24,000 nt of DNA from Clostridia bacterium (GTDB lineage Bacteria > Bacillota > Clostridia > UMGS1810), in assembly GCA_045646385.1 (NCBI GenBank), contig JAZRKQ010000016.1, forward strand, positions 96,336 to 120,335, in the 5' to 3' direction. Position numbers and translations under genes: made by a program. This document shows positions 318 through 23,039 of this stretch, one piece after another. Position 1 is the stretch's first letter; the number at the start of each line of letters is the position of its first letter. The notes below the pieces were generated by a model. The model was not told the origin of the DNA and made no database searches. It saw only the letters and a program-made list of their open reading frames with translations.

Positions 318-1238
318 ATGGATATATTTTTAAATGTTTTAAAAGTTACATTAGAAGAAGGCTTTATGTATGCCATACTTGCTATGGGTGTATATATCAC
401 TTATTCAATACTTGATTTTCCTGATTTGTCTGTTGACGGAACAATGCCGCTGGGTGCGATTGCTACAGGTGTTCTTATAATGGCTGGTGTAAATCCTTGG
501 GTTTGCCTTCTTATTTCTTTTGTACTTGGTGCTCTTGCAGGTGTTATTACGGGTATATTGCATGTAAAATTTAAAATTCGCGATTTACTATGCGGAATAC
601 TCACATACACATCATTGCTTACGATTAATTTAATAATTGTGACGTCGGGAACAGGTGGTATGTCTATTGCATCATTTTTCAGAGATCCAACAATATTCAA
701 CACTTTTCCTGCCACGATAATACCGGAAAAAGTAGGCGGATATTCTTTAAGAATACTTGTCATGTCATTTGTTATTGTTTTGGTCGTAAAGATAATAATG
801 GATTTGTATTTAAAAACAAAATCAGGTATTTTACTTCGTGCTACTGGTGATAATTCGAGGTTTGTAACGATGCTTGCCGTTGATTCAGGTAAAATCAAAA
901 TTTTAGGTCTTGCTTTGGGAAATGGATTGGCAGCACTATCCGGTTCTGTTATTGCACAATCTAAAGGCTCTGCTGATCCTCAAATGGGAGTGGGAATGGT
1001 AGTTCTTGGCTTGGCATCGGTTATTATTGGACTGAGCATATTTAAAAAGTTTTCGTTAATTAAAACAACCACTATGGTTATTTTGGGCAGTATAGCATAC
1101 AAGGCTTGTTTATCTATTGCGCTTGAGTTGGGCTTACCCACCAATTATTTAAAACTTCTTATGGCTGTTATTTTTACTATAGCGATAGTTGCAAGCAGAA
1201 TATCAATAAAAAAGGGTGGTGCACATGTTAAGGCTTGA
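318..1238 (+). CDS. ABC transporter permease
   Basis: 306-aa, highly hydrophobic, multi-TM protein. ATG at 318 is preceded by AGAGG. It lies between the binding-protein and ATPase genes, and its 3' end overlaps the ATPase start. Confidence 0.85.
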   Translation: MDIFLNVLKVTLEEGFMYAILAMGVYITYSILDFPDLSVDGTMPLGAIATGVLIMAGVNPWVCLLISFVLGALAGVITGILHVKFKIRDLLCGILTYTSLLTINLIIVTSGTGGMSIASFFRDPTIFNTFPATIIPEKVGGYSLRILVMSFVIVLVVKIIMDLYLKTKSGILLRATGDNSRFVTMLAVDSGKIKILGLALGNGLAALSGSVIAQSKGSADPQMGVGMVVLGLASVIIGLSIFKKFSLIKTTTMVILGSIAYKACLSIALELGLPTNYLKLLMAVIFTIAIVASRISIKKGGAHVKA

Positions 1239-1998
1239 AAATATCACCAAAAAATTTAATCCGGATACAATAGATGAAAGCATTGTTTTTGATAATTTCA
1301 ATTTTATGGTTAATAAAGGCGAGTTTGTATCAGTTATAGGCTCTAACGGAAGCGGAAAAAGTACATTGCTCAACCTGATATGCGGAACACTTGCACAGGA
1401 TAGTGGCAATATCATATTCAATAATAAAAATATAAATAAACTTTCTGAATATAAACGTGCAAAATTTATCGGGCGAGTTTATCAAGAACCAAAAGCCGGA
1501 ACTTGCGGGAATCTGACTATTGCCGAAAACATAGCATTGGCAGATAATAAAAATCAGTTTTATGGGCTTTCCAAATGCCTGACAAAGAAACGGATTGATT
1601 ATTATAAAACTTTGCTTGAAAAATGCAATTTAGGGCTTGAAAATCGTATATCGACTAAGGTCGATGCACTAAGCGGTGGTCAAAGGCAAGCATTAGCCCT
1701 TGTTATTGCAAATATGTGTGATATAGATTTACTTATACTTGATGAGCATACTGCTGCGCTTGACCCGAAATCTTCCGATACAGTTATGCATTTAACAGAT
1801 AAACTTGTAAATGAAAAGGGGATAACAACCCTTATGGTAACTCACAATTTAAGATTTGCTGTTGAGTATGGTAATCGTCTTGTAATGATGCATGAAGGGG
1901 ATACTGTCTTAGATGTTTCGGGCGAAGACAAGGAAAATGTTGATGTTGACGATTTGCTTGGAAAGTTTTATGAAATCAGTATAGAAAAAGGAAATTAA
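1225..1998 (+). CDS. ABC transporter ATP-binding protein
   Basis: Walker A GSNGSGKST, ABC signature LSGGQRQ and Walker B LLILDEHT. ATG at 1225 is preferred over the ORF-track GTG at 1216 because AAGGGTGG sits just upstream. Confidence 0.9.
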   Translation: MLRLENITKKFNPDTIDESIVFDNFNFMVNKGEFVSVIGSNGSGKSTLLNLICGTLAQDSGNIIFNNKNINKLSEYKRAKFIGRVYQEPKAGTCGNLTIAENIALADNKNQFYGLSKCLTKKRIDYYKTLLEKCNLGLENRISTKVDALSGGQRQALALVIANMCDIDLLILDEHTAALDPKSSDTVMHLTDKLVNEKGITTLMVTHNLRFAVEYGNRLVMMHEGDTVLDVSGEDKENVDVDDLLGKFYEISIEKGN

Positions 1999-2026: not shown

Positions 2027-3505
2027 TTATAAAATAATACAAATGAGTCCACCGCTACCTTCGTTGATGATTTTTTGCAATGTTTCTTGTAGTTTGTATT
2101 GTGCATCTTCAGGCATTCGATACAATTTGTTATGTAAGCCTTCGTTTACTAATTCATGAAGTGATTTTCCAAATATATTTGTCTGCCAAATTGATTTTGG
2201 GTCAATTTCAAATTCCTTTAAAAGATAATGTACCAATTCTTCGCTTTGCTTTTCTGTTCCTACTATTGGCGAAACCTCTGTTTCGATATCAGCACGTATC
2301 ATATGGATACTGGGTGCAGAAGCGCGCAAACGAACACCAAAGCGATTTCCTTGTTTGACAATTTCAGGTTCTTCCAATGAAAGTTCGTCAATAGATGGAG
2401 ATACAATTCCATATCCTGTTTCTTGCACTTCCTTAAGTGCATATGAAATCTTATCATATTTTCTTTTTGTTTCTGCTAATTCCTGCATTAAAGACATTAA
2501 CGTATCTTTTCCGCTGATTTCAAGACCTGACGTTTCACCAAGAATTTTATAATACAGATTATCATCAGTCATAATTTCAAGAGTTACTGTGCCGTCACCG
2601 GGATTGATTTCAGATATATCAATATTAGATATATTATCATTTGATTTAAGTTTTTCCATAACTTTATGAGTTTCGTTAATTTTACTTACGCTTATCATGG
2701 AAGAAAGAACGCAATCGTAAATAGATTTTTTTAAATGATGATTTGGTTCTAAAACATCAATCCACTCCGGAATATTGATAGCGATTTCTTTTAACGGGAA
2801 CTCAAACAGTACGTTCTCGATAATACAGTTAATATCCTCGTGCGTAAGTTCTTGACAGTTTACAGCCATTACACTTACATCATGTCGCTTTTCAATTTCT
2901 TCTTTTATGGCAATGGCAGAGGTGCCTTCAGGATTTGTGGAGTTCACCAACACTATAAAAGGCTTGCCGATTTCCTTGAGTTCTGTAATAACTCTGTTTT
3001 CGGCTTCAAGATATTCATTGCGATCAATATCAGATATGCTTCCGTCTGTTGTTACAACAATACCAATGGTGGAATGGTCGGTTATTACTTTTTTTGTTCC
3101 GATTTCGGCTGCCTGAGCAAACGGGATTTCGTTTTCAAACCAAGGGGTCTTGACCATTCTTGGTGCATCGTTTTCTATGTGTCCCATTGCAGAATTTACT
3201 ATGTAACCAACACAGTCTATCATTCTTACCTTGAATTTTGCATTATCTGACAGTTCAATTTCTACGGCTTCATTTGGAATAAATTTAGGCTCTGTGGTCA
3301 TAATAGTTCTGCCGGCAGCGCTTTGAGGTAATTCGTCCTTTGCACGTTCCCGTTTGAAAGCGTTATCTATGTGTGGAATAACAAGAGAATCCATAAATTT
3401 CTTAATGAAAGTTGATTTTCCTGTCCTTACCGGTCCGATAACGCCAATATAGATATTGCCGTCTGTCCTTGAGGCAATATCTTTGTACACATTGTAATCA
3501 CTCAT
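2027..3505 (-). CDS. spoIVA: Stage IV sporulation protein A (spore coat morphogenetic ATPase)
   Basis: 492 aa. The N-terminus DIASRTDGNIYIGVIGPVRTGKSTFIKKFM and the C-terminus INEGSGGLICIIL align along the full length with my recollection of B. subtilis SpoIVA. A GGAGGAAAT RBS precedes the ATG. Confidence 0.95.
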   Translation of the reverse strand: MSDYNVYKDIASRTDGNIYIGVIGPVRTGKSTFIKKFMDSLVIPHIDNAFKRERAKDELPQSAAGRTIMTTEPKFIPNEAVEIELSDNAKFKVRMIDCVGYIVNSAMGHIENDAPRMVKTPWFENEIPFAQAAEIGTKKVITDHSTIGIVVTTDGSISDIDRNEYLEAENRVITELKEIGKPFIVLVNSTNPEGTSAIAIKEEIEKRHDVSVMAVNCQELTHEDINCIIENVLFEFPLKEIAINIPEWIDVLEPNHHLKKSIYDCVLSSMISVSKINETHKVMEKLKSNDNISNIDISEINPGDGTVTLEIMTDDNLYYKILGETSGLEISGKDTLMSLMQELAETKRKYDKISYALKEVQETGYGIVSPSIDELSLEEPEIVKQGNRFGVRLRASAPSIHMIRADIETEVSPIVGTEKQSEELVHYLLKEFEIDPKSIWQTNIFGKSLHELVNEGLHNKLYRMPEDAQYKLQETLQKIINEGSGGLICIIL

Positions 3506-3624: not shown

Positions 3625-3653
3625 TTGACACGAAAGTGAAAATGTGCTATTAT
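3625..3653 (+). promoter_or_regulatory. Sigma-A promoter for the tRNA-Ser pair
   Basis: TTGACA (3625-3630), a 17-nt spacer, then TATTAT (3648-3653) with TG at 3645-3646 (extended -10). It lies about 18 nt upstream of the first tRNA. Confidence 0.7.
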
Positions 3654-3670
3654 ATTTAACGTAGTCTTTT

Positions 3671-3754
3671 GGAGAGGTGTCCGAGTGGTTTAAGGAGCTA
3701 GTCTTGAAAACTAGTGATGCGAAAGCACCCAGAGTTCGAATCTCTGCCTCTCCG
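3671..3754 (+). tRNA. tRNA-Ser (anticodon UGA)
   Basis: Acceptor GGAGAGG/CCTCTCC with discriminator G. Anticodon stem CTAGT/ACTAG with loop CTTGAAA. Long variable arm. T arm CAGAG-TTCGAAT-CTCTG. No encoded CCA. Confidence 0.9.
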
Positions 3755-3804
3755 TTTTTTTATATCTAAATGACTGTTTCATCTCATCATGGCAGTCTGA
3801 GTAT

Positions 3805-3892
3805 GGAGAAGTACTCAAGTTGGTGAAGAGGTGCCCCTGCTAAGGGTATAGGTCGGGAAACCGGCGCGAGAGTTCAAATCTCTCCTTCTCCG
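3805..3892 (+). tRNA. tRNA-Ser (anticodon GCU)
   Basis: Acceptor GGAGAAG/CTTCTCC with discriminator G. Anticodon stem TGCCC/GGGTA with loop CTGCTAA. Long variable arm. T arm GAGAG-TTCAAAT-CTCTC. Confidence 0.9.
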
Positions 3893-3894
3893 TG

Positions 3895-3931
3895 AAAATA
3901 CAAGTGTCTATAGAGGCACTTGTATTTTTTG
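3895..3931 (+). terminator. Rho-independent terminator after the tRNA genes
   Basis: ATACAAGTGTCT (3898-3909) pairs with AGGCACTTGTAT (3914-3925) around loop ATAG, followed by a T6 run. Confidence 0.8.
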
Positions 3932-3971: not shown

Positions 3972-4000
3972 TTGACATATTAAAATTAATATGATATATT
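3972..4000 (+). promoter_or_regulatory. Sigma-A promoter driving the T-box leader
   Basis: TTGACA (3972-3977), a 17-nt spacer, then TATATT (3995-4000) with TG at 3992-3993. Confidence 0.7.
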
Positions 4001-4013
4001 TATGTAGAATAAA

Positions 4014-4280
4014 GGCTTTGACGGAGAGTACATATTCATTTGAACTTTAGAGAGAAGTGGCGGTTGGTGCGAGTCATAAGGGATGGAATATGTTTGTAGC
4101 TTCTGAGCCGGGAGGAAGAAAGCAATTTTGTTAGTAGAACCTTCCCGTGATTGCTGCGTTAATGCATATGGGTTGTTTGACCCTGAGAGTGGCGCATATT
4201 TTGCGCAATTTGAGTGGTACCGCGGGTGAATTACACTCGTCTCAAAGATTTTAACTATACTTTGAGGCGAGATTTTTTTT
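4014..4280 (+). promoter_or_regulatory. T-box riboswitch leader (tRNA-sensing transcription attenuator), probable GUA (Val) specifier
   Basis: Stem I: GA/K-turn motif, AGUA (4027-4030), AG bulge AGAGAGAA (4049-4056) and distal loop GGUUGGUGCGAG (4062-4073). Stem II spans 4110-4147 and contains AGUAGA. Stem III is GCGCA/UGCGC (4192-4206). The T-box motif AAUUUGAGUGGUACCGCG is at 4207-4224. A 12-bp terminator (4236-4247/4260-4271) plus U8 competes with an antiterminator. Confidence 0.85.
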
Positions 4281-4308
4281 GCCTCATGATAAAGGAGAAA
4301 TTTTTAAT

Positions 4309-6600
4309 ATGGAAAACTCAAGGGATATTAATCTCAAAATCAAGGAAATGGCTGAACGTATCCGTGAACTGCGTGAGATTGAGAACTATACCACGCAGGA
4401 AATGGCCGAAAAAACAGGTATTTCTGTTGAAGAGTACATAAAATGCGAAAATGGCGAATCAGACCTCAACTTTGCTTTTATTTATCGTTGTGCGGCTGCA
4501 TTAAGAGTAAACGTTACAGATATTATAGAAGGTTATAGCCCTAACCTTAAATCTTATACTGTTACACGTGCAGGTGCAGGGCAACAAATTGCCAAAGCAC
4601 ATGGTATGATTTATCATAACCTTGCTTATGCATTTAAGAATCGTATTGCTGAACCTCTTTTTGTTGTAAGCGCATATGATGAAGACGCGCAAAATAAAGA
4701 TATCGAACTTACAACACATTCAGGGCAGGAATGTGATATTGTTATTGAGGGACACCTTATGGTACAGATAGGCGAGCATAAGGAAGTGCTCGGCCCTGGC
4801 GACAGTATCTATTATAATAGCGACACTCCACACGGTATGATTGCTGTTAACGGAAAAGAATGTAAGTTTTATGCTATAGTTTTAAGAGCGGATGTAGATG
4901 GAGCAGATACACCTTCTGATGTTGTTTCTACTGAACAGATTATAGGTTCTATCCACAGAGATACAAAAGACAGAATCTACCATAACTTTATTGATGTGGT
5001 TGAAGATGATAAAGGCACACCGATTTCTATAGAATTTAAAAATACTGAAAAGTTCAACTTTGCATTTGACCTTGTTGACGAACTTTCAAGACGTGAGCCC
5101 GACAAACTTGCTATGCTTCATATCGGTAAAGACAAAACCGAAAGACGTTTTACTTTTACTGATATGAGAAAGGCTTCAAGTCAATGTGCTAATTATTTTG
5201 CTTCACTCGGAATTAAAAAGGGTGACAGAGTAATGCTTATTTTGAAACGCCATTATCAATTCTGGATAGCAATGCTCGGTTTAAATAAACTTGGTGCAAT
5301 TGCAATTCCTGCAGTTGACCAACTTCACGAACACGACCTTGAGTATAGATTTAATTCTGCGGGCGTAAGTGCTATTGTATGTACATCGGATGGAGAAGTT
5401 GCAAATTATGTTGATATTGCAGCAGAAAAATGTCCATCACTTATAAATAAAATGATTGTAGGAGGAAGTAAAGAGGGTTGGAGAAACTTTGACGAAGAGT
5501 ATAAGCGTTTTAGTTCGCACTTTGACCGTACTGAAGACTCTCCGTGTGGCGATGATACTATGCTTATGTATTTCACATCCGGTACATCAGGTTATCCAAA
5601 AATTGCTACGCACAATTATAAATATCCTTTAGGACATTTCCATACTGCTAAATATTGGCACAATGTTGATCCTGATGGTTTACATTTTACAATTTCAGAT
5701 ACCGGTTGGGCAAAGGCGATGTGGGGTAAACTTTATGGACAATGGCTTTGTGAGGCTGCAACATTTGTATATGACTTTGACCGTTTTGATGCATCTGAAA
5801 TATTACCAATGTTTGCAAAACACCATATTACAACTTTCTGTGCACCTCCAACAATGCTCCGTATGATGATTAAGCAAGATATTTCAAAATATGATTTTTC
5901 ATCTGTTCGTCATATGACAACGGCAGGCGAGGCTCTTAATCCGGAGGTTTATCGTCAGTTTGAAAAGGCAACTGGTCTTCAGATTAAAGAAGGTTTTGGA
6001 CAGACAGAGAGCACGATGATTATAGGTAATCTTGTTGGCAAACCTCATAAAATTGGTGCTATGGGTAAACCGGCACCTATATACAAGGTTGAACTTCATG
6101 ATTCTGATGGTAATCCTGTTAAAACAAGTGAGTCAGGTGAAATTGTTATCAATGTTAAAGACGGAGCACCTTGTGGTTTGTTTACCGGATATTATGGCGA
6201 TGAGGAAAAAACAAAAGAAGTATGGCACGATGGATATTACCATACCGGTGACGTTGCATGGTGCGATGAAGACGGATTCTATTGGTATGTAGGACGTATA
6301 GATGATGTTATTAAGTCTTCCGGATACCGCATTGGTCCTTTTGAAATTGAAAGTGTTATTATGGAATTACCATATGTACTTGAGTGCGGTGTTTCTGCCG
6401 TTCCTGATGAAGTAAGAGGTCAAATCGTTAAAGCTAGCATTGTTTTGGTAAACGGTACAGAGCCTACTGAGGAACTTAAAAAAGAGATACAGAATTATGT
6501 AAAAGATAAAACCGCGCCGTATAAATATCCAAGAATTGTTGAATTTAAAGACAGTTTACCAAAAACAGTAAGCGGAAAAATCCAAAGAAATAAACTTTAA
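4309..6600 (+). CDS. Fusion protein: XRE-family HTH, cupin domain and AMP-forming (ACSM/MACS-type) acyl-CoA synthetase
   Basis: ATG at 4309 follows AAGGAG. The ORF-track TTG at 4279 lies in the terminator U-tract and is rejected. In ORF-track numbering, the HTH covers about aa 22-80, the cupin about aa 115-203 (HSGQE...GPGDSIYYNSDTPHG) and the linker aa 204-232. Ligase motifs are FTSGTSGYPK, GFGQTES, YHTGD, GRIDDVIKSSGYRIGPFEIE and SGKIQR. Confidence 0.85.
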   Translation: MENSRDINLKIKEMAERIRELREIENYTTQEMAEKTGISVEEYIKCENGESDLNFAFIYRCAAALRVNVTDIIEGYSPNLKSYTVTRAGAGQQIAKAHGMIYHNLAYAFKNRIAEPLFVVSAYDEDAQNKDIELTTHSGQECDIVIEGHLMVQIGEHKEVLGPGDSIYYNSDTPHGMIAVNGKECKFYAIVLRADVDGADTPSDVVSTEQIIGSIHRDTKDRIYHNFIDVVEDDKGTPISIEFKNTEKFNFAFDLVDELSRREPDKLAMLHIGKDKTERRFTFTDMRKASSQCANYFASLGIKKGDRVMLILKRHYQFWIAMLGLNKLGAIAIPAVDQLHEHDLEYRFNSAGVSAIVCTSDGEVANYVDIAAEKCPSLINKMIVGGSKEGWRNFDEEYKRFSSHFDRTEDSPCGDDTMLMYFTSGTSGYPKIATHNYKYPLGHFHTAKYWHNVDPDGLHFTISDTGWAKAMWGKLYGQWLCEAATFVYDFDRFDASEILPMFAKHHITTFCAPPTMLRMMIKQDISKYDFSSVRHMTTAGEALNPEVYRQFEKATGLQIKEGFGQTESTMIIGNLVGKPHKIGAMGKPAPIYKVELHDSDGNPVKTSESGEIVINVKDGAPCGLFTGYYGDEEKTKEVWHDGYYHTGDVAWCDEDGFYWYVGRIDDVIKSSGYRIGPFEIESVIMELPYVLECGVSAVPDEVRGQIVKASIVLVNGTEPTEELKKEIQNYVKDKTAPYKYPRIVEFKDSLPKTVSGKIQRNKL

Positions 6601-6602
6601 TT

Positions 6603-6638
6603 AAAAATGACTCATTCAACTGAATGAGTCATTTTTTT
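6603..6638. terminator. Bidirectional rho-independent terminator
   Basis: ATGACTCATTC (6607-6617) pairs with GAATGAGTCAT (6622-6632) around loop AACT, with an A-run on the left and T7 on the right. It serves the convergent genes on both sides. Confidence 0.85.
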
Positions 6639-8118
6639 ATTGTATTGTTTTTTTGCTTTGGTAAACTGGTTCGCAAGTAACATTAATCCCAAGTCTGCGT
6701 AATACATTTTCATCTACTGAAGAAAGTATTACAGAGGAATGAACTTCGCAACCTCTCAATTTGCTTAACTGTTCCATAGCAAGTTCTGCATTTTCATCAG
6801 TTGGTGCACAAATTGAAAGAGCAATCAGCGCTTCGTCAGTATGAAGTCTTGGATTTCTGTTACCAAGATGATCGGTTTTTAAATGTTGGATTGGTTCTAT
6901 AATTACAGGTGAAATAAGGTGGATAGCGTCATCAAGTCCGGCAAGTTCTTTCAATGCATTAAGCAAAAGTGCCGCAGCAGCACCTAAGAGTTCAGAAGTT
7001 CTTCCGGTAATAATTTTCCCGTTTGGTAGTTCTAATGCTGCAGCAGGAGCGCCAGTAATAGCAGATTTTTGAAGAGCAGGACCTATAACGGCACGGTCGT
7101 TTGTTGTTACACCAGCTTTTTTCATAAGTAATTCAAGTTTCATAACAACATCATCGTCTGTTAAAATTCCTTTTCTTTGGTCACATAATGCAGTATAGTA
7201 TCTTCTTACAATTTCTTGTTTCGATGCGGTTTTGGTTATCTCATCATCAATAATGCAGTTTCCTGCCATATTTACCCCCATATCGGTAGGTGATTTGTAT
7301 GGACAAGCACCTAAAATGTCTTCAAGCATAGCCTTAACAACAGGGAAAATTTCTACATCTCTGTTATAATTTACTGTTGTCTCACCATATGCTTCGAGGT
7401 GAAAAGGATCAATCATGTTAACATCGTTTAAATCTGCAGTTGCAGCCTCGTACGCAAGGTTAACCGGATGAGTAAGCGGAAGATTCCAGATAGGGAATGT
7501 TTCAAACTTAGCATATCCTGACTGAATACCTTTCTTATGCTCATGATAAAGTTGAGAAAGGCATGTTGCCATTTTTCCGCTTCCGGGGCCGGGTGCAGTA
7601 ACAACAACTAATTCTTTTGTTGTTTCGATATATTCGTTTTTTCCATACCCATCATCGCTTACAATTTTAGGGATATCAGATGGATAACCATCAATAGAGT
7701 AGTGACGGTATACCTTAATGCCGAGTGCCTCAAGACGTTTCTGAAATGCGATTGCAGTGGCTTGTCCACTAAAGCGAGTCATAACCACACTGCCTACGTA
7801 TAAGCCAATAGAACGGAAGCAATCAATTAAGCGGATAACATCCAAATCGTAAGTAATTCCTAAATCACTGCGAAGTTTGTTTTTTTCTATATCAGCGGTG
7901 TTTATGGCTATAACGACCTCTACGCGGTCTTTAAGTTGAAGAAGCATTTTGAGTTTGCTGTCAGGCTCAAATCCGGGCAGAACTCTTGATGCATGGTAAT
8001 CATCAAAAAGTTTGCCGCCAAATTCCAAATATAATTTGCCGCCAAATTGTTCAATACGCTCTTTAATATGTTGAGATTGCATATGAAGATATTTTTCATT
8101 ATCAAATCCTATAGCCAC
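6637..8118 (-). CDS. DUF1846 / UPF0371 family protein (function unknown)
   Basis: 493 aa. Matches the family along its full length as I recall it: [77 protein letters not shown] start at 8118 with an AGAGGTG RBS. Confidence 0.9.
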
Positions 8119-8192: not shown

Positions 8193-9044
8193 TCATCCAA
8201 ATAAAGCAATAAATATTCCGAATAAGATAATTAAAGTGCAAATTAATTTATATATGATGTGCTTCTCTTTAAAACACAGCCATCCAATAAGAACAGTAAA
8301 AATTACAGATGATTGTTTTATAACTGTCATCAGGGTAACTTCGCTTGCACTTGATGCATTTGCTTCAAATAAAAATTTATCGCCAACAACTAATGAAATA
8401 CTCATAAGTGGAATCCAATAATTACTTTTTATTGATTTTATTGAAATCTGTTCATTACGAATTAATATGATTATTCCATATATTACTGTCATAAAAAACA
8501 TAAACCAAAATTGCAGTTGCGATGACTCCATATGCTTCATAAGTACTTTATCCATAGTGCCGGATACAGCGTTTAAAAAGCAGTTGAGCAATGCTGCAAC
8601 AAGAACGGTAAAAGTCATACCTTTAGATGAAGTGCTTTTCTTTAGGTTTACTAATACGAGGCCGATAATAACAAGAATAATACCAATCGCTTTGTTATAA
8701 GTAAAATTTTCGCCGAGAACAAATACACCCAGCATTGTTGAAAATATCATTCGTGACATATCCATAATTCCGTAAAGGCTTACAGAAATATTTTTAAGTG
8801 CAGCAAATGCAAACAACCACGCTGCACAAACCACAGAAGATTTTAAAAATGAATAAAAAATATATATTGGCTGAAGTTCAAAAACAGTTTTAGAAAAAGG
8901 TATTGTTAAAATCCAACCAATTAGTGTGAAGAAAAACAATATTTCTATCGAATTGCTTTTTGATAATGCGGCCTTTTTCATGCCTTCGCGCGTTCCTTTT
9001 AAAAAACTGTATATAAAAACAAAAAGTATCCATAAATCTTGCAT
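8193..9044 (-). CDS. EamA/DMT-family transporter
   Basis: 283 aa with about 10 predicted TM helices in two repeated halves, typical of drug/metabolite transporter (EamA) proteins. A GAGGT RBS lies 8 nt upstream of the ATG. Confidence 0.75.
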   Translation of the reverse strand: MQDLWILFVFIYSFLKGTREGMKKAALSKSNSIEILFFFTLIGWILTIPFSKTVFELQPIYIFYSFLKSSVVCAAWLFAFAALKNISVSLYGIMDMSRMIFSTMLGVFVLGENFTYNKAIGIILVIIGLVLVNLKKSTSSKGMTFTVLVAALLNCFLNAVSGTMDKVLMKHMESSQLQFWFMFFMTVIYGIIILIRNEQISIKSIKSNYWIPLMSISLVVGDKFLFEANASSASEVTLMTVIKQSSVIFTVLIGWLCFKEKHIIYKLICTLIILFGIFIALFG

Positions 9045-9079
9045 ATATAATACCTCAATTAAAATTCTTCAACTTAAAC

Positions 9080-9108
9080 ATTGTACTATTGTTTTATACA
9101 AAAATCAA
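9080..9108 (-). promoter_or_regulatory. Candidate sigma-A promoter for the EamA gene
   Basis: Minus strand: TTGATT (9108-9103), a 17-nt spacer, then TACAAT (9085-9080). Confidence 0.45.
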
Positions 9109-9126
9109 GCATAATAGCATATTAGA

Positions 9127-9155
9127 TTGACAAAATGTGACATGAATTATATAAT
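9127..9155 (+). promoter_or_regulatory. Consensus sigma-A promoter for the PstS-like gene
   Basis: TTGACA (9127-9132), a 17-nt spacer, then TATAAT (9150-9155). Confidence 0.7.
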
Positions 9156-9185
9156 TGGAAATATACAAAGAAAGTAGGTGTTTTG

Positions 9186-10376
9186 ATGGATTTTAAGTCA
9201 CCCAAAATGATTAATGTATATAAAATTATTATTATGATTATGTCTACGGCAGTCTTGCTGTTTCTTTTTGCAGTTTGCGCAATAATCATTTCTTTTGGCA
9301 ACGTTCATGCAAATTTTTATAATACAATGCTTTTGATTGCTGTTGGAATTATTTTAGGTGCACTGGGATGTACTTTGTGGAAAGTAATTACAAATAAATT
9401 TGTGTATATACCGCTTTGTACAATGGTTGGTTTGTGGCTTATTATATTGCTTGCTTTTTCTGGATATTATAGTTATTTTGACTCTATCCCTACTGTTGGT
9501 GAAAGTGATAATATTTGGTGGGATTATTCTCCGTTTTCTAAACACGGAAAAGTTGCAACACTAAATGAAGAATCTACACTTAAACTAACAGATAATATAC
9601 CGCGCCTTGACGGTGCTACTGCTTTATACCCAATATATTCTGCGTTTGTAAAGGCGGTTTATCCTTTGCCAACGGATAATGCTAAACCTACAGATGGATA
9701 TATAAATTGCTCTACAACTGCCGGTGCGTATAAAAATATAGTTGATGGGAATGCAGATATAATATTTGTTGGCGCACCCTCTAAAAAACAAGAAGAGTAT
9801 GCCCAGTCCAAAGGTGTAAAGCTTATATATACACCAATTGGAAAAGAAGCATTTGTTTTCTTTGTAAACAGCGAAAATCCAATTTCTGATATTACGGTTG
9901 AACAGATACAGGAAATATATTCCGGTAAAATTGATAATTGGGGTGCGTTGGGCATTGATGGTTTAGGAGAAATACGTGCTTTTCAGCGAGAAGAGGGAAG
10001 TGGTAGCCAAAGTGCACTTGTACGCCTTATGGAAGGCAGAGAACTTATTGCTCCTCCAAAAGAAGATGTTATAGAAGGAATGGGCGGTATAATTAAGAAA
10101 ACTGCAGACTACAGAAACTATAAAAATGCCTTGGGTTATTCTTTTAGATTTTATTCTACCGAGATGGTTAAAAACAATCAAATTAAATTATTGAGTGTTG
10201 ACGGAATTGAACCCACATTAGAAAATATAGAAAACGGCAATTATCCGATTGCATCTCACTTTTATGCGGTTACACGGGCAGAAAGAGATACTAATACCGA
10301 AAAATTAATTAATTGGATTCTTGGTAAACAAGGTCAGGAACTGATTGAAAAAACAGGGTACGCTCCTCTTAACTAA
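9186..10376 (+). CDS. Membrane-anchored PstS-like (PBP_like_2) substrate-binding protein
   Basis: The first ~100 aa form about four hydrophobic helices. The remainder resembles phosphate-binding PstS-family domains (LDGATALYP, IIFVGAPS, VEQIQEIYSGKIDNWGALG, REEGSGSQSA). ATG at 9186 follows AGGTG. Confidence 0.7.
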   Translation: MDFKSPKMINVYKIIIMIMSTAVLLFLFAVCAIIISFGNVHANFYNTMLLIAVGIILGALGCTLWKVITNKFVYIPLCTMVGLWLIILLAFSGYYSYFDSIPTVGESDNIWWDYSPFSKHGKVATLNEESTLKLTDNIPRLDGATALYPIYSAFVKAVYPLPTDNAKPTDGYINCSTTAGAYKNIVDGNADIIFVGAPSKKQEEYAQSKGVKLIYTPIGKEAFVFFVNSENPISDITVEQIQEIYSGKIDNWGALGIDGLGEIRAFQREEGSGSQSALVRLMEGRELIAPPKEDVIEGMGGIIKKTADYRNYKNALGYSFRFYSTEMVKNNQIKLLSVDGIEPTLENIENGNYPIASHFYAVTRAERDTNTEKLINWILGKQGQELIEKTGYAPLN

Positions 10377-10463
10377 CCTGTAGTATGATTTGTTTATAAT
10401 ACACAACTGAGAATATTTCTCGAAAAAAAATAAATGTAAATATTACAAAAAACGCATAAATGC

Positions 10464-10492
10464 TTGACAAAACGATATGTATATGATATCAT
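10464..10492 (+). promoter_or_regulatory. Sigma-A promoter (extended -10) upstream of the small ORF and the long operon
   Basis: TTGACA (10464-10469), a 17-nt spacer, then TATCAT (10487-10492) with TG at 10484-10485. Confidence 0.6.
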
Positions 10493-10522
10493 AAATGTAT
10501 ATTTTTGAAAGGGGATGTACGT

Positions 10523-10804
10523 ATGTCGAATTTTGTTAAACATTTTGCTAATATGTTTACCAAAGATGCGTCTGTAAGTGCGTGTTCCTCTTGTGGTGCA
10601 GTTAATACTGCTACCAATTTTAATTTTATTAAATTTGCAGACACTGTTTTTTCAGTGTCTGTTTTGTTATGTTCTTTAATTTCCATTATTGGTTTTGCTT
10701 TGCTTGGTCTAATTTATGTGATTATACTGGCAAACATTATAATTATTAACATTATATGTCTGAAAAAAATATTCTATAAAAAGCGAAACATTATTAAATT
10801 CTAA
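10523..10804 (+). CDS. Hypothetical small membrane protein (93 aa)
   Basis: ATG at 10523 follows GAAAGGGGA. The N-terminal half is soluble and carries a CSSCG motif. The C-terminal half is hydrophobic and very Ile-rich. No family was recognised. Confidence 0.45.
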   Translation: MSNFVKHFANMFTKDASVSACSSCGAVNTATNFNFIKFADTVFSVSVLLCSLISIIGFALLGLIYVIILANIIIINIICLKKIFYKKRNIIKF

Positions 10805-10833
10805 TTTTTCGATATAAACAATCCAAGTTTAAG

Positions 10834-10868
10834 ACGGTTTTGCTTTTTATAGGCGGAGCCGTTTTTTA
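10834..10868 (+). terminator. Rho-independent terminator/attenuator-like hairpin directly upstream of the operon
   Basis: ACGGTTTTGC (10834-10843) pairs with GCGGAGCCGT (10853-10862). The stem is 10 bp including 3 G-U pairs, the loop is 9 nt, and a T6 run follows. It ends 29 nt before the next start codon. Confidence 0.55.
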
Positions 10869-10896
10869 ATAAAAGAGGAAAAGAGGAGAAAATTGT

Positions 10897-12312
10897 ATGA
10901 CAGAAATCAAAATTGCCGACATTACTTTAAGAGAAAAATCTTTTTGTGAGGTTGATGCTCTAAGTTTTAAAGAAAAAACAGAGATTGCCAAACAACTGGA
11001 TAATCTAAAAGTTGATATAATTGAAACAGCGCCAATCACAAGTGGCAAAAAAGATATTCTGTTCTTACACACAATTTCTTCAATTGTAAAAAACAGTATA
11101 ATTTCTTGCCCGACAGGTCTTTCTGAGGAATCTGTTTTAGAGGCTTATGATGCTATTAAAAATTCTGTTAAGTCAAGACTTAATATTATTGTTCCTGTTT
11201 CAACTGTGCAAATGGAATATATATGCCACAAAAAGCCTGATAAAGTTCTTGATATGATTGCAAATCTTACCAAATACGCAAGTTCGCTTTGTAAAGATGT
11301 TGAAGTGTCATTGGCAGACAGCACCAGAGCTGAAAGTGAATTTTTATATAAAGCGATTTCTGCTGCTATAGGAAATGGAGCAAAGGTCATTACCTTGTGT
11401 GATTCTGCCGGAATTATGATGCCGTCTGAATTTGAACAGTACATAAATACTATTTATGATAATGTTCCTGAACTTAAAGAAGTGGCTCTTTCAGTTGAGT
11501 GCTCAAACGAAATGAACATGGCTACCGCATGTGCTATTGCCTGCATTAATGCCGGTGCTACACAAATAAAGGTTGCCACAGGCTCAAATTCATGCCCATC
11601 ACTTAAATCTACTGCTAATGTATTCAGAATTAAATCTGATGTTTTAAAAATTTCTACTTTAATGAATATGACGGTTCTGGATAAAGCGGTTGCCCGTATT
11701 TCTTCTATTGCTGATGGCAATATTGGTAATGCAACTGTGTATAATACTGAAGAACATAAAAACTATTTTGAAGATACAAAATTCAGTGCTGATGACGATA
11801 TTAAAACTATTGAAAAAGCGCTTGTAACTATGGGATATGAATTACCTGCAGAAGAACTTAAAAATGTATATGACGAGTTTTCAAAAATCGCTGTAAAAAA
11901 ATCTGTTGGTATTAAAGAACTTGACGCAATTGTTGCAAGTACTGCTATGCAAGTTGCACCTACATATAAAGTTAAAAGTTATGTTATTAACAGCGGTAAC
12001 ATTTTAACGCCTACTGCTAATATAGAACTTACTAAAAGTGGTGATGTACTTCACGGTTTTTCTATAGGTGATGGCCCGATTGATGCTGCGTTTATGGCTA
12101 TAGAGCAGATTACAGGTCACCATTACGAACTTGATGATTTCCAGATACAATCTGTAACTCGCGGACGAGAGGCAATGGCAGAGAGTATTGTAAAACTCAG
12201 AAATGATGGTAGACTTTATTCCGGAAAAGGCACGTCTACAGATATTGTAGGCGCAAGCATTAATGCCTATATCAACGCATTGAATAAAATTTGCTTTGAG
12301 GAGGAGATATAA
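10897..12312 (+). CDS. LeuA/2-isopropylmalate-synthase-like protein with degenerate catalytic motifs and an intact LeuA_dimer regulatory domain
   Basis: The HMGL-like TIM-barrel N-terminal half aligns with LeuA (EKTEIAKQLDNLKVDIIE). The N-terminal DTTLRDGEQ motif reads DITLREKSF, and the HxH metal motif reads ECSNE (nt 11497-11511). The C-terminal GDGPIDAAFMAIE...DIVGASINAYINALNK is well conserved. Confidence 0.8.
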   Translation: MTEIKIADITLREKSFCEVDALSFKEKTEIAKQLDNLKVDIIETAPITSGKKDILFLHTISSIVKNSIISCPTGLSEESVLEAYDAIKNSVKSRLNIIVPVSTVQMEYICHKKPDKVLDMIANLTKYASSLCKDVEVSLADSTRAESEFLYKAISAAIGNGAKVITLCDSAGIMMPSEFEQYINTIYDNVPELKEVALSVECSNEMNMATACAIACINAGATQIKVATGSNSCPSLKSTANVFRIKSDVLKISTLMNMTVLDKAVARISSIADGNIGNATVYNTEEHKNYFEDTKFSADDDIKTIEKALVTMGYELPAEELKNVYDEFSKIAVKKSVGIKELDAIVASTAMQVAPTYKVKSYVINSGNILTPTANIELTKSGDVLHGFSIGDGPIDAAFMAIEQITGHHYELDDFQIQSVTRGREAMAESIVKLRNDGRLYSGKGTSTDIVGASINAYINALNKICFEEEI

Positions 12313-14768
12313 TGAATTTATCTTTTTCTACCAATAAATGGACAGATTTTAAAATTAGTGATTTCATTAAAATTGCTGCTGAATACAAATTTAACGGTAT
12401 AGAAATTCATGATGTTAATGAAATCAACGAGGAAAGTCTTTCCGATACTTATCACTCGCTTATTGAACATGGTATAAAAATACCGTGTATAGATATGGTG
12501 AACGATGTTTCAATTGATTCTTCAGAACTTTATAATGAATTTGAAAGGTTAAAAGAAGTAGTTGCTAAACTGCGAATCCCTTATATAAGATTGAAATCAA
12601 GCGGAGATGCAGCGGAATTTATAAAAAAAGTTTTGCCTTATGCAAAAGAAAATGGAATTACTTTGCTTGTTGAAACAGTGGGGGAATATGCAGATACTTC
12701 AAAACTCCGTACTTTGCTTGAAAGTTTTGCAGACGATAACCTTGCTGCATTGTGGGATTTTCATTATCCTTACCGTGTTAACGGCGAAGCGCCTGAAGAC
12801 ACTATCAGAAATCTTGGGGCATATGTTAAGCATATCCATATAAAAGACTCTGAAAGTTTAGCAGAGCATAGCCTGATAGGCGAGGGCAGTCTTCCTGTTG
12901 ATGAATTTATTAATGCATTAAGAAGTATAAATTTTAACGGATTTGTTTCGATAGAATGGAATCCTGACTGGGTATCAGAGGTTGATGATATAGACATTAT
13001 TTTCCCGCACTTTGTAAGTTTTATGTCAAGATATAAAGATCCTTCAAGAGCGAAAAAAGTTCTTTATGACAATAAAACAAAAACAGGCAAGTTTGTATGG
13101 AAAAAAGATGCATTGGTTGAAAAGACATTTTCACAAGTCCTTGATACTATGGCGGAGCAGTTTCCTGACCAGTACGCAATAAAATACACAACGCTTGATT
13201 ATACAAGAACATATTCGCAATTTCGTGATGATGTTGATAACTTTGCTAAAAGTTTGCTTGCTTTGGGTGTAAAAAAAGGAAGTCACGTTGCTGTTTGGGC
13301 AACAAATGTTCCTCAATGGTATATTGCATTCTGGGCAACAACAAAAATTGGTGCTGTTTTAGTTACAGTAAATACCGCGTATAAAATCCATGAAGCAGAG
13401 TATCTACTCAGACAGTCAGACACACACACACTGATTTTGATTGAAGGATACAGAGATTCAAATTACTCACAGATTATTGCAGAACTCTGTCCTGAACTTG
13501 AAACTAAAGAAGCAGATGCGCCATTACATGCTAAGAGATTACCTTTCCTTAGAAATGTAATTACCGTCGGATATAAGCAAAAGGGTTGCCTTACATGGGA
13601 AGCTGCACTTTCCAAAGGTGAAAAAGTACATATTGATGAAGTTAAGCGTGCTGCCGCCGCTGTTGATGTTCATGATGTATGTAATATGCAGTATACATCA
13701 GGTACTACAGGTTTTCCAAAGGGTGTAATGCTTACACATTATAATATTGTAAATGATGGTAAATGTATTGGCGATAGAATGGACCTTTCAACTGCCGACC
13801 GAATGATGATTCAAGTTCCTATGTTACATTGCTTCGGAATGGTGTTGGCGATGACGGCTTCTATGACGCATGGCGCTACAATTTTCCCGTTGCCATACTT
13901 TACTCCAAAGCCTGCGTTAGCTTGTATAAATCAGGAACATATTACAGCGTTTCACGGTGTTCCTACAATGTTTATTGCAATGCTTGAACATCCTGATTTT
14001 GAAAAAACCGATTTCAGTCATATGAGAACTGGTATTATGGCTGGCTCTCCTTGTCCTGAGCCTGTTATGAATCAGGTTATAGAGCAGATGAATATGCGTG
14101 AAATTACAATTGTGTATGGTCAGACAGAGGCTTCACCCGGTTGTACAATGAGTTCTACTGATGATTCTGTTGAAGTTCGTGTTTCTACTGTAGGCAGAGC
14201 GCTTCCTGAAATCGAATGCCGAATTGTAGATCCTGAAACAAACGAGGAACTTCCTGATAATACTATCGGCGAATTTGTTGCCAGAGGATATAATATTATG
14301 AAAGGGTATTACAAAATGCCCGAAGCAACGGCTGCTGCTATTGATAGTGACGGTTGGCTACATACAGGTGATTTGGCCCTCAAAACTCCCGAAGGAAACT
14401 ATCGAATTACAGGCCGTTTAAAAGATATGATTATTCGCGGAGGAGAAAATATTTATCCTAAAGAAATTGAAGAATTTATTTACACGCATCCCAAAGTTAG
14501 CGATGTTCAGGTAATTGGTGTTCCTGATGAACAGTATGGCGAGGAAATTATGGCTTGTATTATTCCTAAAGAGGGAGAGACCATTACCATTGATGAAATG
14601 AAAGAATATATTCTTTCACATATGGCTAAGCACAAAGTGCCTAAATACATTGATTTTGTTGATGCTTTCCCGACAAATGCTGCGGGAAAAATCCTCAAAT
14701 ATAAAATGCGTGAAGATGCTGTCGAAAGACTTAAAATTAAAAAAGTTGACGGCATTGTAGCAGAATAA
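12312..14768 (+). CDS. Fusion protein: xylose-isomerase-like TIM barrel (sugar-phosphate isomerase/epimerase family) and AMP-forming acyl-CoA ligase (FadD/ACSF2-like)
   Basis: The ATG overlaps the upstream stop (TAATG). Aa 1-240 resemble the AP_endonuc_2/XylA-like TIM barrel (LLVETVG, HIHIKD, VSIEWN). Aa ~266-818 carry the ligase motifs YTSGTTGFPKG, YGQTEASP, WLHTGD, GRLKDMIIRGGENIYPKEIE and AGKILK. Confidence 0.85.
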   Translation: MNLSFSTNKWTDFKISDFIKIAAEYKFNGIEIHDVNEINEESLSDTYHSLIEHGIKIPCIDMVNDVSIDSSELYNEFERLKEVVAKLRIPYIRLKSSGDAAEFIKKVLPYAKENGITLLVETVGEYADTSKLRTLLESFADDNLAALWDFHYPYRVNGEAPEDTIRNLGAYVKHIHIKDSESLAEHSLIGEGSLPVDEFINALRSINFNGFVSIEWNPDWVSEVDDIDIIFPHFVSFMSRYKDPSRAKKVLYDNKTKTGKFVWKKDALVEKTFSQVLDTMAEQFPDQYAIKYTTLDYTRTYSQFRDDVDNFAKSLLALGVKKGSHVAVWATNVPQWYIAFWATTKIGAVLVTVNTAYKIHEAEYLLRQSDTHTLILIEGYRDSNYSQIIAELCPELETKEADAPLHAKRLPFLRNVITVGYKQKGCLTWEAALSKGEKVHIDEVKRAAAAVDVHDVCNMQYTSGTTGFPKGVMLTHYNIVNDGKCIGDRMDLSTADRMMIQVPMLHCFGMVLAMTASMTHGATIFPLPYFTPKPALACINQEHITAFHGVPTMFIAMLEHPDFEKTDFSHMRTGIMAGSPCPEPVMNQVIEQMNMREITIVYGQTEASPGCTMSSTDDSVEVRVSTVGRALPEIECRIVDPETNEELPDNTIGEFVARGYNIMKGYYKMPEATAAAIDSDGWLHTGDLALKTPEGNYRITGRLKDMIIRGGENIYPKEIEEFIYTHPKVSDVQVIGVPDEQYGEEIMACIIPKEGETITIDEMKEYILSHMAKHKVPKYIDFVDAFPTNAAGKILKYKMREDAVERLKIKKVDGIVAE

Positions 14769-14780
14769 GGAGATATAAAA

Positions 14781-15839
14781 ATGGATATTAAAATTACAAA
14801 AACAACTGCATCAAAAGCAATTCCTACAGAAAATTTGGGATTTGGCAAAAGTTTTACTGACCATATGTTTATTGCTGATTACTCAAGAGATAAAGGTTGG
14901 TATAATGCCAGAATCGTTCCGTTTGCAAATTTGAGTATGCATCCTGCGGCAACCGTTTTTCATTACGGTGCTGAAATTTTCGAAGGATTAAAGGCATACA
15001 GAAGAGCAGATGGTAAAGTTCAACTTTTCAGACCTATTGAAAATGTAAGAAGAATGAACAATTCTGCTGAACGTTTAAGACTTCCTCAAATGCCGGAAGA
15101 AGATATGCTTCAGGCAATTATGGAACTTGTTAAAGTTGAAGAAGCATGGGTGCCTCATAACGAGGGTGAATCTCTTTACATTCGTCCATTCCTTTTTGGT
15201 AATGACGAACATTTAGGCGTTCATTCAATCGTGAACGCAACATTTGTAATCATTTGCTCACCAAGCGGAAGTTATTATGCTGAAGGTATAAATCCCGTTA
15301 AAATTATGATTGAAGAAGACGATGTAAGGGCTGTTCGTGGCGGTACTGGATTTGCTAAATGCGGTGGTAACTATGCTGCGGCTAACCGTGCCGGTGAAAA
15401 AGCAGAGCAGTTAGGCTATACACAGGTTCTTTGGCTCGATGGTGTTGAAAGAAAGTACATAGAAGAAGTAGGCGCTATGAATGTAATGTTTAAAATTGAT
15501 GGTGAAATTGTAACTCCCGCACTTACTGGTTCAATTCTTCCGGGTATAACGAGAAAATCATGTATCGAAGTATTAAAGAACGAGGGATATACAGTTTCTG
15601 AAAGACTTCTCTCTATTGATGAACTGACAGATGCAATGGAAAATGGCAAGTTAGAAGAGGCTTGGGGTTGCGGAACCGCTGCTGTTGTATCACCTATTGG
15701 ACAGTTGTTCTATAAAGGTAAAACTTATACTATCAACAATAACGAAATTGGTACTGTTACTCAGAATCTTTATAATAAACTTACCGGTATTCAGTGGGGT
15801 AAAGTTGAGGATACATTCGGATGGACAGTAGAGATTTAA
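14781..15839 (+). CDS. ilvE: Branched-chain amino acid aminotransferase
   Basis: 352 aa. Class IV BCAT hallmarks: FGKSFTDHMF, HYGAEIFEGLKAYR, FRP.ENV.RMN.SA.RL.LP and the PLP lysine context GTGFAKCGGNYAA. An AAGGAG RBS is present. Confidence 0.9.
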   Translation: MDIKITKTTASKAIPTENLGFGKSFTDHMFIADYSRDKGWYNARIVPFANLSMHPAATVFHYGAEIFEGLKAYRRADGKVQLFRPIENVRRMNNSAERLRLPQMPEEDMLQAIMELVKVEEAWVPHNEGESLYIRPFLFGNDEHLGVHSIVNATFVIICSPSGSYYAEGINPVKIMIEEDDVRAVRGGTGFAKCGGNYAAANRAGEKAEQLGYTQVLWLDGVERKYIEEVGAMNVMFKIDGEIVTPALTGSILPGITRKSCIEVLKNEGYTVSERLLSIDELTDAMENGKLEEAWGCGTAAVVSPIGQLFYKGKTYTINNNEIGTVTQNLYNKLTGIQWGKVEDTFGWTVEI

Positions 15840-16501: not shown

Positions 16502-16514
16502 GGAGGAAAAATAA

Positions 16515-16718
16515 ATGGCTAAAGTTACTTTTGACGAAAGCATTTGCAAAGGCTGCGGACTTTGCGTAGGTGCTTGTCCCAAAAAAATTGTTGCTTTGAA
16601 AGATGAACTGAATGCCAAAGGATATCATCCTGCCGGCGTTACCGATATGGAAAGTTGCATTGGTTGTGCGTTCTGCGCTACAATGTGTCCCGATTGTGTA
16701 ATTACAGTTGAAAAATAA
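16515..16718 (+). CDS. 2-oxoacid:ferredoxin oxidoreductase delta subunit (2x[4Fe-4S] ferredoxin)
   Basis: 67 aa with two CxxCxxCxxxCP motifs (CKGCGLCVGACP, CIGCAFCATMCP). AAGGAGG RBS. It lies immediately upstream of the alpha/beta/gamma subunits. Confidence 0.85.
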   Translation: MAKVTFDESICKGCGLCVGACPKKIVALKDELNAKGYHPAGVTDMESCIGCAFCATMCPDCVITVEK

Positions 16719-16731
16719 GGAGGAGAGAATT

Positions 16732-19084: not shown

Positions 19085-19098
19085 GGAGGGGACGCCTT

Positions 19099-19650: not shown

Positions 19651-19665
19651 CTTTCGGAGGCTTGA

Positions 19666-21363: not shown

Positions 21364-21382
21364 GAAGGTGTAATTTAATTAA

Positions 21383-23022: not shown

Positions 23023-23039
23023 TTATCGAGGTGGATACA

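Follow-up and report, generated by a model that had tools for sequence, protein, structure and literature searches.

A T-box leader with a valine specifier upstream of an HTH-cupin-acyl-CoA ligase fusion gene in Clostridia, and its likely role in making valine from isobutyrate

Class I T-box leaders (Rfam family RF00230), such as those of Bacillus subtilis tyrS and glyQS and the valS and ilv-leu leaders, share one architecture, which consists of the Stem I parts, Stem II with its S-turn, Stem IIA/B, Stem III, a 14-nt T-box sequence and a UGGN bulge. They also share a competing antiterminator and terminator, a purine after the specifier codon and the induction of amino-acid supply by uncharged tRNA. 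The same architecture is found in a leader RNA at positions 4009-4282 of a 24,000-nt stretch of DNA from a Clostridia bacterium (assembly GCA_045646385.1, contig JAZRKQ010000016.1, positions 96,336 to 120,335 of the forward strand; this whole stretch is called the window), and the same mode of induction is predicted for it. The gene gated by this leader encodes a fusion of a helix-turn-helix (HTH) domain, a cupin and an AMP-forming ligase.

It has been known since the 1960s that rumen and gut anaerobes, cellulolytic species among them, require isobutyrate, 2-methylbutyrate and isovalerate, which they carboxylate to valine, isoleucine and leucine. For rumen bacteria, PMC7356843 cites Allison & Peel 1971 and Robinson & Allison 1969 for the conversion of isobutyrate to valine and of 2-methylbutyrate to isoleucine. 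In the literature searched, the genes of the activation step and their control are not pinned down. Among characterized acid-activating enzymes, MacsMa of Methanosarcina acetivorans prefers 2-methylbutyrate (PMC10455477), and MbcS of S. aureus is selective for 2-methylbutyrate and isobutyrate, with a documented role in supplying primers for branched fatty acids (PMC10026030). The leader in the window is probably a valine-specific attenuating T-box, through which uncharged tRNA-Val would induce the activation of isobutyrate for reductive carboxylation to valine. The Val T-box thus likely marks genes that let these anaerobes make valine from isobutyrate. The parts of the unit are:

3972-4000, plus strand: promoter-like site with -35 TTGACA (3972-3977), a 17-nt spacer and a TG-extended -10 TATATT (3995-4000); 11 of 12 matches
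4009-4282, plus strand: T-box leader RNA, transcriptional, class I type (RF00230 match; covariation in 67 orthologs)
4014-4109, plus strand: Stem I with K-turn, UGA...UGA (sequence, RF00230 alignment, covarying helices 1-5)
4014-4016 and 4107-4109, plus strand: Stem I base helix, GGC with GCC (sequence)
4023-4026 and 4100-4103, plus strand: Stem I lower helix, GGAG with CUUC (100% paired, compensatory changes in 4 of 4 pairs)
4027-4030, plus strand: AGUA of Stem I (sequence)
4031-4037 and 4086-4092, plus strand: Stem I middle helix (covariation)
4049-4056, plus strand: Stem I AG bulge (sequence)
4062-4073, plus strand: Stem I distal loop GGUUGGUGCGAG (sequence)
4096-4098, plus strand: specifier codon GUA, Val (conserved in orthologs; TBDB position rule; purine G4099 next)
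4110-4115 and 4140-4145, plus strand: Stem II, with S-turn AGUAGA at 4133-4138 (98.8% paired, 6 of 6 pairs compensatory)
4146-4148 and 4156-4158, plus strand: Stem IIA hairpin (helix invariant in orthologs; RF00230 alignment)
4169-4184, plus strand: family-specific extra hairpin between Stem IIA/B and Stem III (96% paired, 5 of 5 pairs compensatory)
4192-4196 and 4202-4206, plus strand: Stem III, GCGCA with UGCGC (97.5% paired, 4 of 5 pairs compensatory)
4207-4246, plus strand: T-box sequence (4207-4224) and antiterminator (RF00230 alignment, covarying helices 10-11)
4209-4214 with 4241-4246 and 4222-4228 with 4234-4240, plus strand: antiterminator helices (99% paired in orthologs)
4215-4221, plus strand: antiterminator bulge UGGUACC, of which UGGU (4215-4218) is the predicted partner of the tRNA 3' ACCA
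4236-4280, plus strand: intrinsic terminator, a 12-bp stem (4236-4247 with 4260-4271) and U8 (4273-4280); 98.6% paired in orthologs
4309-6600, plus strand: gated gene, 763 aa, HTH-cupin-AMP ligase (ribosome-binding site AAGGAG at 4292-4297; Pfam domains)
6603-6636, plus strand: terminator closing the gated gene (15-bp stem and T run)

The leader matches RF00230 at 4009-4247 (+) with 100.3 bits in an Rfam cmscan (gathering score 93 bits, E 2.4e-21), and the match covers the model at full length (1-219). Relatives of the gated protein were sought across one genome per GTDB species, and at least 588 stretches encode them. The best 80 of these (76-93% identity; L001 to L080) all come from metagenome-assembled genomes of rumen or gut Clostridia, with labels such as Acutalibacteraceae, Oscillospiraceae, Ruminococcus and similar. 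Upstream DNA is present for 78 loci, and in 77 of them the T-box core AGUGGUACCGCG is found about 100 nt 5' of the gene; the orthologous leaders score 99.7-101.6 bits against RF00230. The UGGU is invariant across all loci, as is the T-box sequence AAUUUGAGUGGUACCGCGGG. A promoter of the form TTGACA-17-TGnTAnAAT is found about 10-25 nt 5' of the T-box in every orthologous Val and Ile leader.

A structure model written from the window sequence was compared with an alignment of 67 full orthologous leaders. Paired cells make up 94.3% in these leaders, against 38-46% when the 3' partners are slid by 1-3 columns. Compensatory changes occur in 39 of 55 pairs, and none of 500 column shuffles attains the observed values. 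The AGAGA and the G/U positions of the distal loop are invariant in the same alignment. RNAalifold, which is independent of the written model, finds Stem I, Stem II, the 4169-4184 hairpin, Stem III and the terminator; compensatory changes are seen in 38 of its 57 pairs. The hairpin at 4169-4184 is an insertion relative to the Rfam model. Stem II also carries an apical extension at 4120-4132 (alignment A1 columns 121-123/137-139), a second family-specific addition that covaries. A long-range pairing of CUGCG (4154-4158) with CGCGG (4221-4225), also proposed by RNAalifold, was set aside because both strands are invariant and show no covariation.

The 5' strand of the terminator doubles as the 3' strand of the antiterminator, making the two structures mutually exclusive. 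The terminator hairpin alone folds at -17.1 kcal/mol (z -5.76, with 0 of 200 shuffles as stable) and the antiterminator alone at -11.8 kcal/mol; therefore, the default state should be OFF, like that of other T-boxes. The folding energy of the whole leader is not unusual (z -0.96), and the leader stands out for its terminator only. The leader at 4009-4282 is confirmed as a genuine, complete transcriptional T-box and a regular member of RF00230.

The specifier is GUA at 4096-4098. In the Infernal alignment, the eight unpaired model positions 'GAAauuca' fall on GUUUGUAG (4092-4099), directly 5' of CUUC. The TBDB rule, by which the specifier is positions 2-4 counted from the 3' end of the specifier bulge (PMC7778990), also yields GUA at 4096-4098, with G4099 as the conserved purine. 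In a survey of 77 orthologous leaders the codon is GUA in all 77, and the next base is G in 68 and A in 9. The three columns 5' of it vary among orthologs (e.g. AAU, UCG, GCU, CGG), and the +1 frame is a stop codon (UAG or UAA). The metagenomic ortholog L107, with a Val-type protein, reads GCUU-GUG-A-CUUC, which places the synonymous Val codon GUG at this position. Since GUA is invariant, the UUU before it is variable and the one substitution is GUG, the specifier is Val. The Val-type leader of L107 (5680-5930) falls below the Rfam gathering score, though all of its elements are readable.

It is extremely improbable that the specifier is not Val (UUU Phe, UUG Leu or UGU Cys) or that the T-box is decayed and no longer switches. 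Such a reading could draw on the specifier loop, which is without the S-turn GAA that would frame the codon and on whose 5' side Infernal deletes three model positions. However, UUU, UUG and UGU were rejected since those bases are not conserved (columns 122-124; three orthologs read CGG), and the elements needed for switching are all conserved, with covariation, in species whose protein identity goes down to 76%. On the aligned leaders, a specifier other than Val is effectively excluded. The 5' AGUA of the specifier loop is kept in the orthologs only as AG-N-N, and across the loop columns 22-92 are paired in 52 of 60, columns 20-94 are G.U in 64 of 67 and columns 21-93 are paired in 36 of 67 only. 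This is suggestive of a compact loop, in which the nucleotides before the codon often pair across to the 5' strand and partly extend the helix. The S-turn of the specifier loop is common but not universal in the family, and its absence does not overturn T-box membership.

The only tRNA-Val gene among the related loci examined is in L051. It has the anticodon CAC and ends in ...UGUCUCC-A-CCA, so that position 73 is A. This A73 matches the UGGU, yet Ile and Leu tRNAs share A73, and the support from this match is weak.

The first-pass annotation of this DNA, made from the sequence alone, had described a complete T-box with a probable GUA specifier and an HTH-cupin-ligase as the sole downstream gene. 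The Rfam match, covariation, terminator pairing and RNAalifold agree on the complete T-box, and every coordinate that it gave for a leader element is correct when checked against the sequence. The codon, which it had called only moderately secure, is now fixed by its conservation in 77 of 77 orthologs, the purine that follows, the GUG synonym and the TBDB rule. The Pfam domains bear out the gene content, and the terminator at 6603-6636 follows the gene.

In the gated protein HTH_3/HTH_19 spans residues 16-77 and Cupin_2 about 92-192, followed by a disordered linker (197-215) and the ligase (253-763), in which the Pfam families AMP-binding and AMP-binding_C span residues 260-757. The gene is monocistronic in this genome, since it is closed by the terminator at 6603-6636 and its downstream neighbour is convergent. 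Over its full length the ligase domain aligns with MacsMa (PDB 3ETC; E 8.6e-187, domain residues 2-516), and the best NCBIfam model is MbcS with 439.5 bits. MacsMa and MbcS are both AMP-forming enzymes that favour small branched acids. Judged by this likeness, the gated product is most likely an AMP-forming short branched-chain acyl-CoA synthetase, with isobutyrate as the most likely substrate. Public databases label the fused protein just 'cupin domain-containing' or 'AMP-binding', and a homolog search with the N-terminal 245 aa finds only generically named fragments of the same fusion.

Genes for the later steps of a route from isobutyryl-CoA to valine are found in a cluster further along the window:

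10897-12312 (window cluster): LeuA-like gene
12312-14768 (window cluster): TIM-barrel::ligase fusion, 818 aa, between the LeuA-like gene and IlvE
14781-15839, plus strand: IlvE (NCBIfam 478 bits, cutoff 307)
15821-16501, plus strand: CbiA-like ATPase (CbiA/MinD/ParA-type P-loop)
16515-16718, plus strand: 2x[4Fe-4S] ferredoxin, 67 aa (delta subunit of VOR, a 2-oxoacid:ferredoxin oxidoreductase)
16708-17802, plus strand: VOR alpha (VorB NF005507, 544.6 bits, cutoff 399)
17802-18554, plus strand: VOR beta
18554-19084, plus strand: VOR gamma
19099-21363, plus strand: third paralog of the gated gene, unfused, with HTH-cupin at 19099-19650 and ligase at 19666-21363 (about 45% identical to the Val and Ile types)

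The beta and gamma subunits match 2-oxoacid:ferredoxin oxidoreductase families, and the four-subunit set is complete. A scan of 9000-21500 against Rfam (E up to 1) finds neither a T-box nor any other element in this cluster. The linkage of these genes to the T-box is seen in the more distant relatives, L025 to L080, of which 52 loci carry neighbouring genes. The Val T-box gene overlaps the CbiA-like gene or is at most 21 nt from it in 49 of these 52 loci, and the order continues with the ferredoxin, VorA/B/G (gaps of about 0) and IlvE (median gap 15 nt). The CbiA-like ATPase has no specific family match and might help VOR to mature or serve it as an Fe-S cluster factor. It is conserved between the ligase and VOR genes in the 52 loci, and its start overlaps the ligase stop or lies at most 21 nt from it. 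The 818-aa protein of the window cluster joins a xylose-isomerase-like TIM barrel (AP_endonuc_2) to a FadD-like AMP-dependent ligase and is a second enzyme::ligase fusion in the cluster.

The relatives L025 to L080 also have a tandem fused paralog directly 5' of the Val unit. This paralog is 61-70% identical and is served by a separate promoter and a separate T-box; the specifier there reads AUC (Ile) in 42 of 42 cases. Ser (UCN) was considered for this leader in place of Ile and rejected because AUC is invariant and the next base is A, C or G. No terminator is found after the Ile-type gene and ahead of the Val promoter and leader; therefore, the Ile and Val units stand in series. With their near-identical leaders, they look like a tandem duplication of leader and gene followed by a codon change, a mode that is among the evolutionary modes of T-boxes described by Wels et al. 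2008. In the same set of loci the LeuA-like gene 3' of IlvE has a third T-box, with the specifier CUC or, twice, CUG (Leu). All three T-boxes are confirmed by Rfam in L028 and L077, and in L028 they follow in series at 3099-3338 (Ile), 5705-5951 (Val) and 12740-12973 (Leu). On the L107 contig a Leu T-box (2915-2685, minus strand) lies in divergent orientation ahead of a LeuA-like gene. The unfused third paralog of the window has no T-box, nor have its true orthologs (60-72% identity), so T-box control belongs to the fused Val and Ile types. The window pair was also considered as a split Ile-type gene, which was rejected since it is about 45% identical to both types and its orthologs have no T-box.

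The two fused types differ in ways that suggest different substrates. When 74 Val-type proteins are compared with 40 Ile-type proteins, 22 positions separate the types (at least 90% conserved within each type and differing between them). In the ligase, fully discriminating residues adjoin the A4 motif SDTGW-A468/G-KA-M471/L and the A5 motif GQTE-ST-M570/L-II-G573/A (Val/Ile). These two motifs line the acyl pocket in adenylate-forming enzymes (ANL superfamily). MacsMa has G and A at the equivalents of 468 and 573, as the Ile type does. Since MacsMa prefers 2-methylbutyrate, this fits 2-methylbutyrate as the substrate of the Ile type and isobutyrate as that of the Val type. Going by these residues, we infer that the Val type would act on isobutyrate and the Ile type on 2-methylbutyrate.

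The same T-box could instead serve a role in membrane lipids. In that case, valine starvation would remove the valine-derived primer, exogenous isobutyrate would be activated in its place and the isobutyryl-CoA made by the MbcS-like enzyme would be a FabH primer for iso-even branched fatty acids. MbcS is the best NCBIfam match and has a documented role in primer supply, and the ligase is the only gene behind the T-box in the window genome. However, the same T-box drives VOR and IlvE in 49 of the 52 related loci, which is needless for primer supply, and VOR run oxidatively would be counter-productive under valine starvation. The Ile T-box on the paralog and the Leu T-box on the LeuA-like gene also mark the cluster as one for amino-acid supply. 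Lipid primer supply is the main rival explanation; it fits the monocistronic unit here but not the VOR/IlvE operon of the relatives, and it is considered unlikely.

The synthesis of valine from isobutyrate is thus the preferred explanation, and the following steps are proposed. Transcription would start about 8 nt 3' of the promoter at 3972-4000. In the default state, formation of the 12-bp terminator (4236-4271) with its U8 would end the transcript ahead of the gene. When valine is scarce, the anticodon of uncharged tRNA-Val would pair with GUA at 4096-4098, its elbow would dock on the platform of AG bulge and distal loop, and its free 3' ACCA would pair with UGGU at 4215-4218. The tRNA would then stabilise the weaker antiterminator and permit readthrough into 4309-6600. 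The ligase would make isobutyryl-CoA from isobutyrate, ATP and CoA, the VorB-type oxidoreductase would convert it to 2-ketoisovalerate by reductive carboxylation, and IlvE would transaminate 2-ketoisovalerate to valine. The anabolic direction is suggested by the induction on starvation, the AMP-forming (effectively irreversible) ligase and the co-transcription of IlvE. The amino acid salvage role proposed in the first-pass annotation is strongly reinforced by the VOR/IlvE operon in most relatives and by the Ile T-box on the tandem paralog. The same annotation had presented the target as an exception to T-box logic; the gene is better seen as alternative biosynthesis (salvage), for which the logic is canonical.

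Several findings weigh against this explanation. In this genome and its closest relatives (L001 to L024) the T-box gates the ligase alone, and the VOR/IlvE cluster of the window is 10 kb from the T-box gene and without a T-box. It seems that the ancestral operon has split from its T-box in this lineage. The MbcS score of 439.5 bits does not reach the equivalog cutoff of 850, which makes the ligase related to MbcS and a member of another orthologous group. The S-turn GAA 5' of the codon is absent, with variable U-rich bases in its place. Finally, the model leaves the role of the fused HTH-cupin module without explanation.

The HTH_3, HTH_19 and Cupin_2 matches of this module are above the Pfam cutoffs. 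An AlphaFold (AF2) model of residues 1-245, with a predicted local distance difference test score (pLDDT) of 82.7, has five helices, a cupin barrel and the disordered linker 197-215. The top Foldseek match of this model is the XRE-cupin 'regulator' 1y9q (E 1.7e-14), which is also the best sequence match, and HppE, Psf4, HEPD and MPnS come next (about 1e-13 to 1e-9). HppE, Psf4, HEPD and MPnS are enzymes with a structural role for the HTH-like domain and an Fe(II)-binding cupin. Residues H137, E141 and H175 are invariant in a 45-sequence alignment and sit at the positions of the cupin metal-binding motif (His/Glu/His). Residues that discriminate the Val from the Ile type are found at 8.8 per 100 aa in the HTH, 6.1 in the cupin and 1.7 in the ligase N-domain. 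In the cupin, residues 97, 100, 102, 117 and 133 discriminate the two types fully.

The product could primarily be a transcription factor, an XRE-cupin regulator that works like BirA, its ligase producing an acyl-adenylate or acyl-CoA as co-regulator. Its targets would be other genes, such as the T-box-less VOR cluster at 10897-21363. This is consistent with the domain matches and with 1y9q as the best match in both sequence and fold, with the unfused HTH-cupin gene directly 5' of the third ligase paralog, with the density of type-discriminating residues in the HTH and cupin and with the lack of a riboswitch at the window VOR cluster. However, a comparison of about 115 Val and Ile promoters finds no conserved operator-like palindrome, only the promoter consensus and A-tracts, and the fold is equally near the HppE, Psf4 and HEPD enzymes, whose HTH-like domain is no regulator. 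The invariant triad suggests a metal or ligand site, and the ligase domain is intact and conserved about like that of a working enzyme. A primary role as a transcription factor is thus quite unlikely. A shared operator at 3972-4000 and around 10465 was also considered and rejected, because the likeness is the TTGACA-17-TGnTAT promoter consensus only. The label 'regulator' given to the module in the first-pass annotation is therefore not established. A ligand-sensing or allosteric module is at least as likely, a catalytic cupin would also be possible on the predicted fold, and a ligand-sensing module that adds a second input is favoured over a DNA-binding regulator.

A wider reading, which is held tentatively, takes the Ile, Val and Leu T-boxes of the Acutalibacteraceae and Oscillospiraceae as one supra-operon for making branched-chain amino acids from branched-chain fatty acids, in which the specifiers would report the ligase substrates and the HTH-cupin would be a second metabolite sensor. 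The HTH-cupin could then sense the acid, the amino acid or the acyl-adenylate. If true, the ligase would answer two inputs, tRNA charging and a small molecule, and it might be both enzyme and regulator as BirA is.

The window also contains other genes. Two tRNA-Ser genes, UGA (3670-3755) and GCU (3804-3893), lie directly 5' of the T-box promoter, with a promoter-like site (3625-3653) and a terminator (3894-3929) of their own. Related genomes carry tRNA genes of other kinds (Arg, His, Met, Gln, Pro, Lys) upstream of the locus. At 10465-10868 a promoter-like TTGACA-17-TGATATCAT is followed by a 99-aa open reading frame with an Ile-rich hydrophobic stretch VIILANIIIINII and without a match in Pfam. 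A hairpin and T-run lie just 5' of the LeuA-like gene, and the 99-aa frame could encode a small membrane protein, be a leader or be neither. SpoIVA, a sigma-70-family factor and a SpoIIIAA-like ATPase point to a spore-forming Clostridia host, and an ABC transporter (BPD_transp_2 permease and ATPase) and a DUF1846 protein are also encoded. The genes of this housekeeping context are at 2027-3505 (-), 22283-22924 (-), 23031-23945 (+), 318-1998 (+) and 6637-8118 (-).

The riboswitch class is known, and the target is new to the sources searched. The text and supplement on regulons in Wels et al. 2008 (897 T-boxes) contain no CoA ligase, AMP-binding protein, ferredoxin oxidoreductase or cupin, and neither do the text and supplementary tables of Sun et al. 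2013 (1134 T-boxes). A full-text literature search finds no T-box linked to an acyl-CoA synthetase, VOR or isobutyrate; this search did not cover Vitreschak et al. 2008. Automated catalogues such as TBDB may well contain these leaders uncommented. The riboswitch acts as a built-in label, in which a Val codon marks one ligase paralog and an Ile codon its neighbour. For at least 588 species, most of them uncultured, this yields specific gene assignments that can be tested, and it extends the T-box regulon to acid-salvage enzymes. The leaders (GUA vs AUC) and the enzymes (A468/G573 vs G468/A573) are a natural pair for specificity swaps. The assignments matter for the supplementation of feed with isoacids and for the exchange of amino acids by cross-feeding in gut communities.

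Compared with known systems, the genes assembled here are the same set that the rumen reductive carboxylation of Allison and co-workers (1960s-71) predicts, namely acid activation, a 2-oxoacid:ferredoxin oxidoreductase and a transaminase. That work is physiological labelling without genes or regulation, and the link made here is genomic. The gated protein differs from MacsMa and MbcS in its N-terminal HTH-cupin module and its T-box control, and at positions 468 and 573 the Val type carries A and G, against G and A in MacsMa and the Ile type. XRE-cupin regulators (1y9q, PuuR) and HppE-type enzymes have the same two-domain fold of HTH-like helices and a Cupin_2 barrel; here the module is fused to a ligase and is about 20% identical to either group, so function is not transferable. 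The T-box of B. subtilis rtpA (anti-TRAP) is a precedent for a T-box that gates a regulatory protein. RtpA is a small anti-regulator, whereas in the present product the enzyme domain dominates and a regulatory role is putative. Compared with other class I T-boxes, the specifier loop is without the S-turn GAA, and a covarying hairpin is added at 4169-4184. Instead of an aminoacyl-tRNA synthetase, a de novo biosynthesis gene or a transporter, the leader controls an acyl-CoA ligase, which in relatives is part of a ligase-VOR-IlvE operon.

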